A DNA stretch of 48,173 bases from Staphylococcus phage phiST9-C. Both the position numbers and the translations under genes were made by a program. The notes under the pieces were generated by a model. That model was not told the DNA's origin. It worked only from the letters and a program-made list of their open reading frames with translations, and searched no databases. Positions within the stretch are counted from its first letter, which is position 1, and the number at the start of each line of letters is the position of its first letter. This document shows, one piece after another, positions 2,103 through 5,641 of the stretch. The DNA is taken from the sequence record OQ578995.1. One strand, written 5' to 3'.

Positions 2103-2172
2103 AAAAAAATAATAAGGGTAGGCGGGCTACCCGTGAAAATGTATAAAAAAAGACCAGATGAATTAACATCTG
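2103..2172 (-). terminator. Tandem intrinsic terminators on the minus strand, just upstream of int
   Basis: Minus-strand hairpin CCAGATGTTAATTCATCTGG plus T7, then GGGTAGCCCGCCTACCC plus TTATTATTTTTTT. Confidence 0.55.
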
Positions 2173-2241
2173 GCCAGCCGGATTGGTTACCGGAAATTTA
2201 TATCTTGATTATAATAGATTAACGATAAAAAGTAAAGATAA

Positions 2242-2568
2242 TTATGATAAAATATTAGCTTTCATAAAATCTTCTATAATTTTTAAAGTTTCTTCATTGA
2301 AAGATATATGGCCAGTTGGATCGTAATCATTAAGTTTGATTATTCTTTTTTTACTGATAGTGGTAACTTGAGATGGAATTGCATAAGCTTGTTTGCCTAG
2401 AAACCTTTCGTAACGCTCAATTATTTTTGCAAGTTGCATATAATTATTTTCAATCTCATCAAGTTCTTTTTCGATTTCTGGATTTAAGTTTTTTACTTTT
2501 GCGGATTTTGCGTGCATTTCTTTTATTCTATCCAAATCGAATTGTAAAGTTTTGTGGTCAGATTTCAT
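2242..2568 (-). CDS. MazF/PemK-like protein, C-terminal half (helix region SQVTTISKKRIIKL…)
   Basis: Residues ~65-108 resemble the C-terminal part of MazF (compare S. aureus MazF …EQIRTLDKKRLKEKL…). It is in the same frame as 2581-2946, separated by one TAA and four codons. Confidence 0.5.
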   Translation of the reverse strand: MKSDHKTLQFDLDRIKEMHAKSAKVKNLNPEIEKELDEIENNYMQLAKIIERYERFLGKQAYAIPSQVTTISKKRIIKLNDYDPTGHISFNEETLKIIEDFMKANILS

Positions 2569-2580
2569 TTTTTCTAAAGC

Positions 2581-2946
2581 TTATAGTATTATATTCTCTT
2601 GTAATTTTAATGAAAATTTGGTGTCTTTTGAAGTAAGTGGAACTATAGTAATTAGCTCATTGCGTTTGTTGTCATTTTTATTTAAAACGACGCAAAAATG
2701 GTTCCCTGAGAATTCAGAACCAATGTTAACACCTAGTTTAGCGTATACAATAGTACCTCTTGGATACACTTTAAAGTATTTTTGGTTAGTTAAGGTTGTT
2801 TCATTTTTAAAAATTATTGATTTTGTATAAAGCCAGTCATCCAAATATTTAAATTTGAATTTTCCGCTATTGCAAACTTCTTCAAAGTTATTTACAGCTT
2901 TTAATATTTTATCTTTGCTACTTTTTTTGGTGGAATTTCTTTCCAT
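2581..2946 (-). CDS. MazF/PemK-like protein, N-terminal half (…PRGTIVYAKLGVNIGSEFSGNHFCVVLNKNDNKRNELITIVPLTS)
   Basis: Carries the MazF-type motif RG-[IV]-Y-x-x-L-x5-GSE-x-G-x5-VV[LI]-x11-I-[VI]-x-[LI]-T-[SG], preceded by a ~60-aa N-terminal extension. Confidence 0.5.
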   Translation of the reverse strand: MERNSTKKSSKDKILKAVNNFEEVCNSGKFKFKYLDDWLYTKSIIFKNETTLTNQKYFKVYPRGTIVYAKLGVNIGSEFSGNHFCVVLNKNDNKRNELITIVPLTSKDTKFSLKLQENIIL

Positions 2947-2961
2947 CCCTCATCCTCCTCA

Positions 2962-2988
2962 CGCCACACAGGCGCTATTAATCACAAT
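2962..2988. repeat. Repeated upstream element CGCCACACAGGCGCT[AG]TTAATCA, copy 1
   Basis: A second copy at 3481-3507. Both lie immediately 5' (minus-strand sense) of minus-strand moron start codons. Confidence 0.5.
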
Positions 2989-3083
2989 ACAACTTTTCCC
3001 ATTACTTTAATATCACTAAACGAAGAATCTTTATATTTATCATCTACGAGTTGGATGTCAGGTCTGTCTGCATCAGTGTGATA

Positions 3084-3278
3084 CTATTTATTTTTAAAAA
3101 TTAAAAAAATTTTTATTATTTGGTATATGATTATTAAACCAAGAAGAAACCTTAAAACTTTATAGCCAATTAAGTATGGCCCTGTGGTCCATATTATATT
3201 GTAATCATTAAGAAAAATCATCAAAAAGCTGAGTAGTATTACAATAACTCTAAAAGGAATTCGGCTAATTTTAGGCAC
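3084..3278 (-). CDS. Small hydrophobic/membrane protein (64 aa, GTG start)
   Basis: The ORF has two predicted TM-like hydrophobic stretches and no obvious RBS. Confidence 0.3.
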   Translation of the reverse strand: MPKISRIPFRVIVILLSFLMIFLNDYNIIWTTGPYLIGYKVLRFLLGLIIIYQIIKIFLIFKNK

Positions 3279-3285
3279 CTCAAAT

Positions 3286-3453
3286 CTATTTGTTTTCTTG
3301 ATTATCGATTTTTTCTTCTAATATTTTTAACACTTTTCTTATTTTATATGTTGGAGTGTCTTTATACAAAGAATGGGTGAATATGTTACCATTTTGAGTT
3401 TTAACTGTATAAATAATATTACTTCTTTTATTTTCAAATCTTAAAATTTGCAT
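3286..3453 (-). CDS. Small hypothetical protein (55 aa; MQILRFENKRSNIIYTVKTQNGNIF…)
   Basis: Not in the ORF track (below 60 aa). It has a strong RBS AAGGGG 7 nt before the ATG and ends with TAG at 3286-3288. Confidence 0.35.
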   Translation of the reverse strand: MQILRFENKRSNIIYTVKTQNGNIFTHSLYKDTPTYKIRKVLKILEEKIDNQENK

Positions 3454-3541: not shown

Positions 3542-3551
3542 AATCATTAAA

Positions 3552-3941
3552 TTATATCCAACCAAAACCTTTAGCTATTGTGAATCCTAAACCAATAATA
3601 CCAATAGTCCAACTTATAATGGTATTCCTGTTTTGTTTTGCTTCTCTTTCTAATTCTTTATTATTTTCTAGCAACATATTATTTACATCAGAATTACTTG
3701 GTAGCTTACTAATAGAATTTTGCGTTTCGATACGTAAATTATTGATGTTTGTATTCAATTCAGAACGTAAACTGTTCATATTATTGTTCATGTCTGTTCT
3801 GATACTGTTCAAGTAGTTGTTCATGTCAGTTCTCATAGCACGCATCTCATCTTTGAACTCTCTCATACTATTATTGAATTCGTCTCTTGTTACGTAATTA
3901 CCCATATTACCACCTCCGGAATAGTTACCTTTTTCATTCAT
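3552..3941 (-). CDS. Coiled-coil protein with a C-terminal transmembrane anchor (XhlA-like architecture), function unknown
   Basis: 129 aa with Asn/Met-rich heptad-like repeats (MRxDMNNY…) and C-terminal ISWTIGIIGLGFTIAKGFGWI. RBS GGAGGTGG precedes the start. Confidence 0.6.
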   Translation of the reverse strand: MNEKGNYSGGGNMGNYVTRDEFNNSMREFKDEMRAMRTDMNNYLNSIRTDMNNNMNSLRSELNTNINNLRIETQNSISKLPSNSDVNNMLLENNKELEREAKQNRNTIISWTIGIIGLGFTIAKGFGWI

Positions 3942-3970
3942 TTTATCATTATTCTGGCGATTGTTGTTAA

Positions 3971-3990
3971 TAAGGGTAGGCGGGCTACCC
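3971..3990. repeat. Hairpin cassette TAAGGGTAGGCGGGCTACCC, copy 3
   Basis: Identical to the copy at 2114-2132. It lies upstream (minus sense) of the 3552-3941 gene. Confidence 0.5.
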
Positions 3991-4046
3991 GAAAATTAGT
4001 ACTAGGTACTAAATGTGTTATAATAAAATAAAAAGTAGGTGATGTT

Positions 4047-4238
4047 ATGAATTTTTCAGATTCTGAAATCGCGATAATTTATGACGCTTTATTCCATCTG
4101 GAATGCACAACTGATGTATATTCAAACCCTTATAATTGTACTTCAAAAGAAGCTTATATAAACGCTTTTAGGACTACGTTCAATAAAATCGATGAGTGTT
4201 CGGACAAAAATAGAAAAGGAGCTCTTTATTTCGAATAA
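4047..4238 (+). CDS. Small Cys-containing hypothetical protein (63 aa)
   Basis: RBS AGGTGA 5 nt before the ATG. It converges on and overlaps the 3' end of the 4226-5110 gene by 13 nt. Confidence 0.3.
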   Translation: MNFSDSEIAIIYDALFHLECTTDVYSNPYNCTSKEAYINAFRTTFNKIDECSDKNRKGALYFE

Positions 4239-5110
4239 TGTTCATCTATCAACACTTTTATGCATGATAGTATGATTTGGCAATCCGCTTTTGAAACTTC
4301 GCCAGGATTTGAATGAGAAACTGAATTTCTTAAAGAATAAGTTATATCAATTCTTTTATGCATTCTATAGTTTATTTTCCCTTCGCTAAGTAATCGTTGA
4401 CCTAAATAGTTCATCATGGTGTCGCTACTGTCTTTACTGTTTAACTTAACTTTTTCTTTATCGCATATAGCCATTAACAAAGTTTCTAAGGCGACGCTTA
4501 ATGTTGCAGCTGCAGGTAAAAACAACTTTCGTTTATAACATTCTTCAGCTTGTGCCATTTGATATTCGAAGTCGCTATTGTATTTTGGACTATCGAAGTT
4601 TGATATTAACCCTTCATAATCCAAATGTGAATATGGACTAACCTTATCGTGATTATAATTATCTAGAGACTTTTTGTTTTCATTTGACCATTTCTTATAG
4701 TCGTTTTCTGCTTCATATTGACCCTCAATAGTTAAATTTGAACCTGAATAAATTAAACGAATAGGTTCAATTTTGAAAACTTGTTTAGACGTCAAATTTT
4801 CATAATAGTACTTGAGAAAAATGTCGAATCTTTTTCGTTTTTCACTTTCCATCAACAATCTTTTTATATTTTTATAATCCTCTTCTCTTACTATTATTTT
4901 TTCTTCAGGATTTTGATAGTTGTCAACAATAACTAAAAATTTTGGAGCATCAAAAACGTCTTTATCGACGTCGAATAAAATAAAACTTAAATAATTTTCA
5001 AACTTTATTAAAGGGAGAGCATTCTGGATCTCGTCTCCTAAAAAATCGTAGTGAGATGCTTGAGTTTTGTATCCTTCTATATAGGTATCTTTCAATTTTT
5101 GTATGTTCAT
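4226..5110 (-). CDS. Hypothetical 294-aa protein with a C-terminal HEPN-like Rx4H motif (…YSLRNSVSHSNPGEV…); candidate abortive-infection/defence protein. Start set at MNIQKLKDTY with RBS AAAGGGA
   Basis: RNxxxH near the C-terminus resembles the Abi_2/DUF4145 HEPN signature. The N-terminal ~200 aa are unrecognised. The location is the lysogeny-module moron hotspot. Confidence 0.55.
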   Translation of the reverse strand: MNIQKLKDTYIEGYKTQASHYDFLGDEIQNALPLIKFENYLSFILFDVDKDVFDAPKFLVIVDNYQNPEEKIIVREEDYKNIKRLLMESEKRKRFDIFLKYYYENLTSKQVFKIEPIRLIYSGSNLTIEGQYEAENDYKKWSNENKKSLDNYNHDKVSPYSHLDYEGLISNFDSPKYNSDFEYQMAQAEECYKRKLFLPAAATLSVALETLLMAICDKEKVKLNSKDSSDTMMNYLGQRLLSEGKINYRMHKRIDITYSLRNSVSHSNPGEVSKADCQIILSCIKVLIDEHYSK

Positions 5111-5178
5111 ATTTTCATCCCTTTTAACTAATTTTTTAATATTCAAGCATTTAAAAATATAGCTTTTAAAATTTATAT

Positions 5179-5631
5179 CTATTCAAGACCCATTTCTTTG
5201 TTGGCTTGCTCACTTCTTCGCATCATTTCTTCAACTGATTCGCCAGTATCATTAGCCATTCCTGAACCTTTAGTTCGTGCTTCAGCTTGTGCTTGATCTT
5301 CTGCAGTCCAATTTTGATTATAGTTAGAGTTTGGATTGCTTTTTAATTCATTAGCTCTATTTTGTTCCCATTGAGAAAGATTGACTGCATTATTTGAATT
5401 AGGGTTTTGTGTTTGGCTTTGATTGGTTGCATTGTTTTGTACGCTATTACTAGGTGGATTTTTATCTTCAACTTTTTTCGTTTTTTCTTTTTGCTTTTTT
5501 GGTTCGCTATCTTTATGTTTTTGTGTATGAGACTTTTTATTTTCTTCTTTTTTTGGTTTTTCTTTTTCACCACAAGCTGTTAAAGCTAAAGTACTTACTA
5601 GTAATAATCCAATTATTTTCCTCATATACAT
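5179..5631 (-). CDS. Phage-encoded lipoprotein (signal peptide plus lipobox LTAC, Lys/Asn-rich low-complexity mature part); candidate superinfection-exclusion protein
   Basis: MRKIIGLLLVSTLALTAC|GEKEK… is a classical Gram-positive lipoprotein signal. The gene sits just downstream of the repressor operon. Confidence 0.6.
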   Translation of the reverse strand: MYMRKIIGLLLVSTLALTACGEKEKPKKEENKKSHTQKHKDSEPKKQKEKTKKVEDKNPPSNSVQNNATNQSQTQNPNSNNAVNLSQWEQNRANELKSNPNSNYNQNWTAEDQAQAEARTKGSGMANDTGESVEEMMRRSEQANKEMGLE

Positions 5632-5641
5632 TTCTCCTTTT

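Follow-up and report, generated by a model that had tools for sequence, protein, structure and literature searches.

What is the 3.5-kb interval (positions 2105 to 5640) that separates the integrase gene int from the repressor operon in Staphylococcus phage phiST9-C (accession number OQ578995.1)? The sequence of 48,173 nucleotides (nt), which is referred to here as the window, is an hlb-integrated Staphylococcus aureus prophage; the two halves of the beta-hemolysin gene are found at 162 to 986 and at approximately 47640 to 47810. An earlier note, made from the letters of the window, had taken the interval for an anti-phage or exclusion hotspot, in which repeated hairpins bracket separate gene cassettes. 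We consider it likely that the interval is instead the accessory part of the lysogeny module in a bird-type (phiAvbeta-like) hlb prophage, and that it is a recombination mosaic of two halves, i.e., an intact right half of the Tha/Ith type and a left half that is stacked and largely decayed. The content is variable and accessory rather than a set of core lysogeny functions, as the same note had proposed: of 295 phage records with a match, none reaches 80% coverage of positions 1000 to 6600, and the type Sa3int phage, phi13, carries other genes between int and the repressor.

The tha/ith-like gene pair

The right half of the interval (3964 to 5631) contains a gene for a protein of 294 amino acids (aa) in which a HEPN motif had been recognized earlier; an R-x4-H motif is present, and a HEPN fold is predicted for the domain that carries it. 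Both residues of the motif, R261 and H266, are invariant in 27 homologues. In a BLASTP comparison with Tha-2 of phiNM2, residues 130 to 291, which constitute the HEPN half, align with 40% identity (E value = 6e-38). Since Tha-2 is an experimentally proven prophage defense (PMC11087260), the previous description of this content as defense-like is borne out. Tha and Ith form a tail-activated HEPN abortive-infection system that was described in 2024 (Rostol et al., Nat Microbiol, PMC11087260), and an ith-like partner is essential to the known mechanism.

Such a partner is found in the window. A conserved gene of 63 aa lies antisense to the tha-like gene and overlaps its 3' end by 13 nt. This gene had been missed when all genes of the interval were placed on the minus strand, and the accompanying statement that no gene has an assigned function fails for the tha/ith-like pair. 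The ith-like gene adjoins the tha-like gene in 12 of the 14 related loci, with an overlap of 10 to 13 nt in the eight in which it was measured; it is conserved at the amino acid level down to 47% identity, and the loci reach down to 45% Tha identity. Upstream of it is a region that resembles the ith promoter Pith and that shares 97.6% identity with its counterpart ahead of ith-1 ("xis") in 80alpha and phi11. In 80alpha, Pith-1 is constitutive and acts against the cI-driven operon (PMC11087260). The tha-like gene is located between int and the repressor and is co-oriented with the latter, and the same layout is observed in phi2 and in two IMG/VR loci (L012 and L013). By architecture, position, fold, and partial homology, the pair is a third Tha/Ith type.

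The Tha-like protein's N-terminal domain is confidently modelled (predicted local distance difference test score [pLDDT] = 92) but has no known fold relative. Its family is very narrow, i.e., 7 representative clusters among 1.84 billion proteins. A search of PDB sequences with the Tha-like profile gave no match, and a scan of genome contigs with this profile gave one locus only, in S. coagulans. The SadR/Abi_C HEPN system was set aside as unrelated.

The right half would be read from the ImmR promoter as immR-immA-lipoprotein-tha and would end in a "noncontiguous operon" of the Tha/Ith type. By analogy with 80alpha and phiNM2, the repressor promoter would drive expression of a Tha-like HEPN RNase in the lysogen and would suppress the convergent, constitutively promoted ith-like gene. 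A protein of an infecting phage would be sensed by the N-terminal domain, which would result in nonspecific RNA cleavage and in an aborted infection. On induction, shutoff of the repressor operon would let the putative inhibitor Ith-like accumulate and block Tha, so that the prophage avoids autoimmunity.

The 90% protein cluster of positions 4229 to 5110 contains 294-aa forms and many shortened ones (82, 110, 139, 189, and 220 aa) from complete genomes, and these shortened members suggest that the tha-like gene is frequently inactivated in S. aureus. In two further IMG/VR loci (L020 and L021, at approximately 7001 to 7920), Tha-like genes with 60% identity are followed directly past the stop codon by the hairpin that is described below. 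No ith-like gene was found in these two loci by tblastn, and their Tha genes may be "orphans" that lack an antisense inhibitor. The features of the interval and its surroundings are listed in Table 1.

Table 1. Positions of the features in and around the int-repressor interval of the window
Feature	Position	Strand	Description
Tyrosine integrase, Sa3int type	1043..2080	-	From the list of open reading frames; ATG start at 2080; ~92% nt identity to phi13 int
hp1	2106..2132	-	Stem GGGTAG/CTACCC, 5-nt loop, then UUAUUAUUUUUUU; ends 25 nt upstream of the int start codon, directly before the int ribosome-binding site
Right flank of hp1			Matches SapYZUs7 and R1988; gene next to int there, MazF-like
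Intrinsic-terminator-like hairpin	2152..2175	-	Strong; 9 bp, T7 tail; -14.5 kcal/mol; downstream of the MazF-like gene
PemK/MazF-like gene	2242..2946	-	phrog_1412; 234 aa when intact; in-frame TAA at 2581-2583 (AAA to TAA, base 2583)
Junction element, copy 1	2962..2984	-	Stop codon of the cI remnant plus 20 nt with a small hairpin, running into the MazF-like ribosome-binding site
Chimeric debris	2978..3094	-	Last 13 codons of S24-type cI (2978-3025) fused in frame to approximately codons 3-25 of a 42E-ORF026-like gene (3023-3094); blastn map and translation
64-aa hydrophobic reading frame	3084..3278	-	Doubtful as a gene; two hydrophobic segments
55-aa protein	3286..3453	-	Hydrophilic, intact; distant homologue of 80alpha gp05 (phrog_1176)
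Junction element, copy 2	3481..3503	-	Upstream of the 55-aa gene; with ATTTAATAT, which comes next, makes up a promoter-like site (TTAACA, 17-nt spacer, TAATAT)
hp2	3511..3537	-	Second stem-loop copy; 15 nt past the ORF026-like stop
Right flank of hp2			Matches 42E and B166; gene next to int there, ORF026
42E ORF026 homologue, 5'-truncated	3552..3941	-	129 aa (165 aa in 42E); coiled coil, C-terminal hydrophobic segment; homology ends at 3970
hp3	3964..3990	-	Third stem-loop copy; T-run replaced by the junction with the truncated gene
Right flank of hp3			Matches 80alpha, phi11, phi13, and phi2; gene next to int there, on the plus strand behind Pith (orfC in phi13; ith-type in the other three)
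Pith-like promoter region	3991..4046	+	Inverted repeat TTAGTAC-TAG-GTACTAA (3996-4012), extended -10 TGtTATAAT (4016-4024), ribosome-binding site AGGTGA
ith-like gene	4047..4238	+	63 aa; phrog_22487; antisense
tha-like gene	4226..5110	-	294 aa; C-terminal HEPN domain (R261-x4-H266); N-terminal domain without known fold relative
Lipoprotein	5179..5631	-	Lipobox LTAC, low-complexity mature part; phrog_1759
ImmA-like metalloprotease	5642..6112	-	Module 99.8% identical in L012 and L013
ImmR/cI-like helix-turn-helix repressor	6116..6439	-	With the ImmA-like gene, head of the lysogeny operon reading through to the tha-like gene

A conserved hairpin upstream of int

The sequence TAAGGGTAGRCGGGCTACCC occurs exactly three times in the window (2113 to 2132, 3518 to 3537, and 3971 to 3990), as had been noticed earlier, and none is expected from shuffled sequences. 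The repeat extends to a 27-nt family that starts at 2106, 3511, and 3964 (hp1, hp2, and hp3). A 53-nt query comprising the int ribosome-binding site and hp1 was found at 431 places in 426 phage records, all from Staphylococcus or Mammaliicoccus; the hairpin is thus normally present once per phage. In all loci inspected, it is found immediately upstream of the int ribosome-binding site; it adjoins tyrosine integrases (phi13, 42E, and B166) and serine integrases (80alpha, phiNM2, and StB20) alike. The three copies in the window are not brackets around cassettes, as had been thought, but copies of a single conserved stem-loop before the int ribosome-binding site that were stacked by recombination.

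On the int-coding strand, the consensus is GGGTAS-loop-STACCC followed by UUAUUAUUUUUU. All six pairs of the stem are 100% paired in 23 distinct sequences, the U-tract is conserved, and the loops differ in both sequence and length (4 to 7 nt). The closing pair shows one double change from G:C to C:G, with no unpaired intermediate among the 23 distinct sequences. The double change of the closing pair and the retention of pairing next to variable loops point to selection on the hairpin structure.

The hairpins had been interpreted as minus-strand terminators, and two of the three have the form of one. In the terminator scan, hp1 and hp2 are terminator-like on the minus strand (each has a stem-loop and a U-tract), with fold energies of -8.6 and -9.1 kcal/mol, respectively, whereas hp3 has no T-run, was not scored as a terminator, and does not have the form of an intrinsic terminator. 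Nor does hp1 lie at the end of a cassette of its own; it sits upstream of int, and the MazF-like gene is closed by the separate, stronger terminator at 2152 to 2175. In EW, 37, 2638A, and StB20, the hairpin comes immediately past the stop codon of the co-oriented gene that precedes it, which is a terminator-like placement for the lysogeny operon. We predict that the hairpin with its U-tract acts at the end of this operon as a leaky terminator or an attenuator, possibly in overlap with the int promoter.

The last point can be taken further, i.e., the hairpin region may be mainly the int promoter or operator, in which the T-run would supply the -10 element TATTAT and the stem-loop the spacer, next to a weak -35 element, and the additional copies would then be inert scars. 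The promoter scan returned TTCACG, a 17-nt spacer, and TATTAT at 2137 to 2109, overlapping hp1. The gap between the hairpin and the int ribosome-binding site is too short to hold a promoter, so that transcription of int must depend on read-through or else start at a promoter overlapping the hairpin. Ye and Lee reportedly placed, in 1993, the 5' end of the phi11 int transcript about 22 nt upstream of the reading frame. A predicted promoter is annotated over the hairpin in the record of B166, but in another record the hairpin is annotated as a terminator. In phi11 and L54a, the conserved intergenic region of int and xis has long been viewed as regulatory for int (PMC3152322). However, the -35 element is not conserved among the phages while the pairing of the stem is, including the compensatory change, and the location of the hairpin directly past a stop codon in the four phages named above is that of a terminator. 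A principal function as int promoter or operator seems rather unlikely to us, and it is compatible with the interpretation of the interval as a two-part mosaic.

Probable stacking of three int-proximal ends

In 80alpha, the intergenic region at 1412 to 1533 has the order int ribosome-binding site, caaaattggcaaaaaataa, hairpin, gaaatttagtactaggtactaaatgtgatataat, ribosome-binding site, and ith-1. The window contains the int-proximal half of this 80alpha-like region at 2081 to 2132 and the ith-proximal half at 3964 to 4046, with 1.86 kb between them. Each hairpin copy has a lineage-specific right flank (Table 1), and L012 and L013, which match the window at 99.8% identity from 3968 to beyond 7000, have another int and a single hairpin; the window thus stacks three int-proximal ends. 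The homology with 42E ORF026 ends at 3970 inside the coding sequence (GTTGTTAA/TAAGGG, the slash marking the junction), and approximately 22 codons and the start codon are lost. The right-hand boundary of the repeat coincides with the exact end of the stem in all three copies, whereas the left junctions are at differing positions, one of them inside a coding sequence.

The three ends that were joined would be of the SapYZUs7 type (with the MazF-like gene), the 42E type (with the ORF026-like gene), and the 80alpha/phi2 type (Pith-ith-tha). Joining by illegitimate or short-homology recombination would leave three hairpin copies, and, together with later mutation, it would yield the nonsense-mutated MazF-like gene, the 5'-truncated ORF026-like gene, and the chimeric cI/ORF026 remnant.

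An independent lineage (L017, 65% Tha identity) has two hairpin copies at 8144 to 8996, around approximately 820 bp between the ith promoter and int, and the insert has weak reading frames only. Stacking is therefore recurrent but rare.

The succession of int and co-oriented units that each end in the same hairpin is reminiscent of an integron, in which the hairpin would be a recombination site for promoterless gene-plus-hairpin cassettes inserted site specifically next to int. The exact right boundary in three of three copies and the recurrence of the arrangement in L017 agree with such capture. However, a 17-nt hairpin with a 6-bp stem is unlike attC sites, the same hairpin stands beside the unrelated tyrosine and serine integrases, the left junctions are imprecise, and multicopy cases are rare in the count given above. 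Integron-like capture is scarcely credible to us, and it was ruled out as the main explanation by the single-copy distribution and the imprecise junctions. A related proposal, in which the hairpin is a preferred crossover point that stacks promoterless accessory or defense genes at the 3' end of the lysogeny operon and so builds the integron-analogous array seen here and in L017, is very unlikely.

Decayed genes of the int-proximal half

The int-proximal 1.9 kb (the left half, 2133 to 3963) is mostly debris. The MazF-like gene had been described as split, and it is: 2581 to 2946 and 2242 to 2568 are in one frame with a TAA between them. The PF02452 PemK_toxin domain covers residues 63 to 167 of the intact orthologue in SapYZUs7 (E value = 2.2e-9), and comparison with intact genes of 97% identity shows that the change of AAA to TAA at 2583 interrupts this domain. 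No MazE, AbrB, or helix-turn-helix antitoxin domain was found in the adjoining reading frames, and with the TAA in its toxin domain the gene is not part of an intact toxin-antitoxin pair.

The ORF026-like gene is 5'-truncated: its homology stops at 3970, and the missing 5' end is located 900 bp away, at 3023 to 3094, where it is fused to the cI tail. The chimeric remnant that contains this end has a stop in place of ORF026-like codon 5 and lacks a start codon. The earlier label "XhlA-like" for the ORF026-like protein was not upheld, because no Pfam XhlA match was obtained at E values up to 0.1 and only weak, sub-threshold coiled-coil families were matched. Of the supposed two tiny membrane proteins, the 64-aa product is indeed hydrophobic, but the 55-aa protein is hydrophilic. 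The 64-aa reading frame has no counterpart in PHROG, Pfam, or NCBIfam, the protein collection does not contain its exact sequence, and no phage nucleotide sequence matches it; likewise, positions 3095 to 3468 have no nucleotide match in the phage collection. PdpSau was examined as a candidate for the membrane proteins and set aside, because it lies in the lysis module and is unrelated.

A search of positions 1900 to 6700 against Rfam gave a sole match, which is a sub-threshold hit to the small RNA sau-63 over the terminator downstream of the MazF-like gene (2147 to 2201; 25.7 bits compared with a gathering score of 100). Next to this terminator, in the region 2176 to 2200, a 31-bp duplication, which supplies a second AGCCGGATTGGTTACCGGAAAT, is present in SapYZUs7 and R1988 but absent from the window.

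These observations bear on the hotspot profile, according to which each gene would be a working anti-phage or exclusion cassette with the hairpins as its insulating terminators. The gene content does differ between phages, one member is related to a proven defense system, hp1 and hp2 are terminator-like in the scan, and the L017 lineage has its own pair of hairpins around an insert. On the other hand, the hairpin is usually single copy and tied to int rather than to cassettes, the U-tract of hp3 is lost, the MazF-like gene is nonsense mutated within its toxin domain, the ORF026-like gene has parted from its 5' end, and no gene of the interval has a PADLOC match. With about half of the island decayed, we regard a modular defense hotspot as quite unlikely.

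A second repeat at mosaic junctions

The second repeat, CGCCACACAGGCGCTRTTAATCA, is present in two copies (2962 to 2984 and 3481 to 3503), in agreement with the earlier count, and none is expected in shuffles. Its distance from the following start codon, which had been given as approximately 25 to 30 nt both times, is 15 nt in one case and 27 nt in the other. The last three bases of the element are the stop codon of the upstream gene (TGA), and the other 20 nt contain a hairpin of 4 to 5 bp. The junction of stop codon, element, ribosome-binding site, and ATGGAA is also found ahead of tha-1 in 80alpha and tha-2 in phiNM2, and an equivalent of the arrangement of copy 2 and ATTTAATAT is found after cI in 80alpha. 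The homology with SapYZUs7 and R1988 breaks inside copy 1, which argues that the element is a mosaic seam. The second repeat is thus a conserved sequence directly past the stop codon of cI-type and neighboring genes and represents a mosaic junction.

An identical ribosome-binding site (GAGGAGGATGAGGG), followed by ATG GAA, is common to tha-1, tha-2, and the unrelated MazF-like gene (window, 2947 to 2961; 80alpha, L004, 2568 to 2582; phiNM2, L005, 2609 to 2623). The 5' junction, consisting of the ribosome-binding site and the first two codons, seems to be exchanged among different genes in one piece.

Flanking genes and setting of the prophage

The lipobox protein at 5179 to 5631 and the ImmA/ImmR-like pair at 5642 to 6439 are present where a lipoprotein and an ImmA-like/cI operon had been annotated. 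The lipoprotein matches no Pfam domain, its sole NCBIfam matches are at the level of the signal peptide and below the cutoff, and no evidence of an Ltp-like repeat domain was obtained. NCBIfam returned nothing informative for the proteins of the interval.

The replication and structural modules (7000 to 31000) are approximately 95% identical to those of Sa2-type Panton-Valentine leukocidin (PVL) phages and Triavirus-like phages. The best single phage record covers at most 59% of this region; the prophage as a whole is thus a mosaic without a representative in the phage collection. Proteins of the window have exact matches under accession numbers ACY11917 to ACY11919, which we take to be from strain ED98. 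The cargo at the right end consists of genes for an Rce1/CAAX-like membrane protease and an ornithine cyclodeaminase (44577 to 45317 and 45994 to 46947, plus strand) and not of the human immune-evasion cluster. In hlb-converting avian S. aureus prophages, these two proteins constitute the "bird-specific" factors (PMC10821479).

Weight and meaning of the evidence

Several observations weigh against the division of the interval into a functional Tha/Ith-type half and a decayed half. The N-terminal half of the Tha-like protein matches neither Tha-1 nor Tha-2, and for this reason something other than a tail protein may be the trigger. The comparison with Tha-1 gave no significant similarity (pairwise E value = 0.001; hhalign probability, 2%); Tha-1 is itself barely similar to Tha-2 (E value = 0.21). 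The Ith-like protein resembles Ith-2 weakly, over the first 30 residues (hhalign probability, 55%; E value = 1e-4), and the hhalign probability with Ith-1 is 2.6%. The PADLOC (2023) models gave no credible match for any gene of the interval, nor for Tha-1 and Tha-2 themselves, which are missed because the library predates Tha. As for the left half, the intact 234-aa MazF-like representative is found on at least 1000 contigs and the 121-aa shortened form on 158, and this number indicates that the split allele is stably inherited. The truncated ORF026-like gene keeps an internal ATG (3905) with a strong ribosome-binding site, from which it could still make a protein. Furthermore, a unique order of the recombination events is not derivable from the junctions.

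An hlb-converting avian S. aureus prophage carries a third, uncharacterized type of Tha/Ith abortive-infection system, which is new relative to Tha-1 and Tha-2. With its putative N-terminal sensor domain of a narrow family, the system is a direct candidate in which to look for a new trigger of phage origin as well as for a new Ith inhibitor. The locus further documents that the mosaic is joined at conserved junctions, i.e., the int-leader hairpin, the element past the cI stop codon, and the shared ribosome-binding site with the first codons. Stretches beside int that look like a "defense island" can be largely gene debris, which is relevant to the automated annotation of defense hotspots. The novelty is limited to the new Tha type with an unmatched N-terminal fold and to a well-resolved example of how a staphylococcal lysogeny module is assembled.

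Comparison with known systems

The closest known system is Tha-2/Ith-2 of phiNM2, with which the window shares the position between int and the repressor, the co-orientation with the repressor operon, a small convergent gene that overlaps the 3' end, and the conserved hairpin and promoter region upstream of this small gene. The C-terminal HEPN motif is RNSVSH in the window and RNIINH in Tha-2, and the 40% identity extends over approximately 160 aa. In contrast, the two Tha proteins show no sequence relationship over the N-terminal ~130 aa, the similarity of the Ith-like protein to Ith-2 is marginal and confined to its first 30 residues, and the tha-like gene of the window follows immR-immA-lipoprotein rather than an S24-type cI.

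Tha-1/Ith-1 of 80alpha and phi11 has the same architecture, the nearly identical Pith region, and the same structural relatives of the HEPN domain (5yep and Csm6). The junction element with the ribosome-binding site that precedes tha-1 precedes the MazF-like gene in the window as well. Neither the Tha-like nor the Ith-like protein shows significant similarity to its counterpart, and the N terminus of Tha-1 is not confidently modelled, unlike the N-terminal domain in the window.

The MazF-like gene agrees with the PemK/MazF type II toxins in the Pfam PemK_toxin domain of its intact orthologue, but it differs from them in its length of 234 aa with N- and C-terminal extensions, in the lack of an adjacent antitoxin gene, and in its inactivation by a stop codon.

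Put together, hp1 and the right flank of hp3 give nearly every base of the int-xis region of phi11 and L54a (80alpha, 1412 to 1533), whereas in the window this region is split by the 1.86-kb insert and its hairpin is triplicated. In lambdoid and dairy phages, short conserved intergenic stretches termed "linkers" flank exchangeable genes and are located at homology breakpoints. One seam of the window differs from such linkers in being a structured hairpin with a U-tract and covariation, and on these grounds the hairpin probably also has a transcriptional role.

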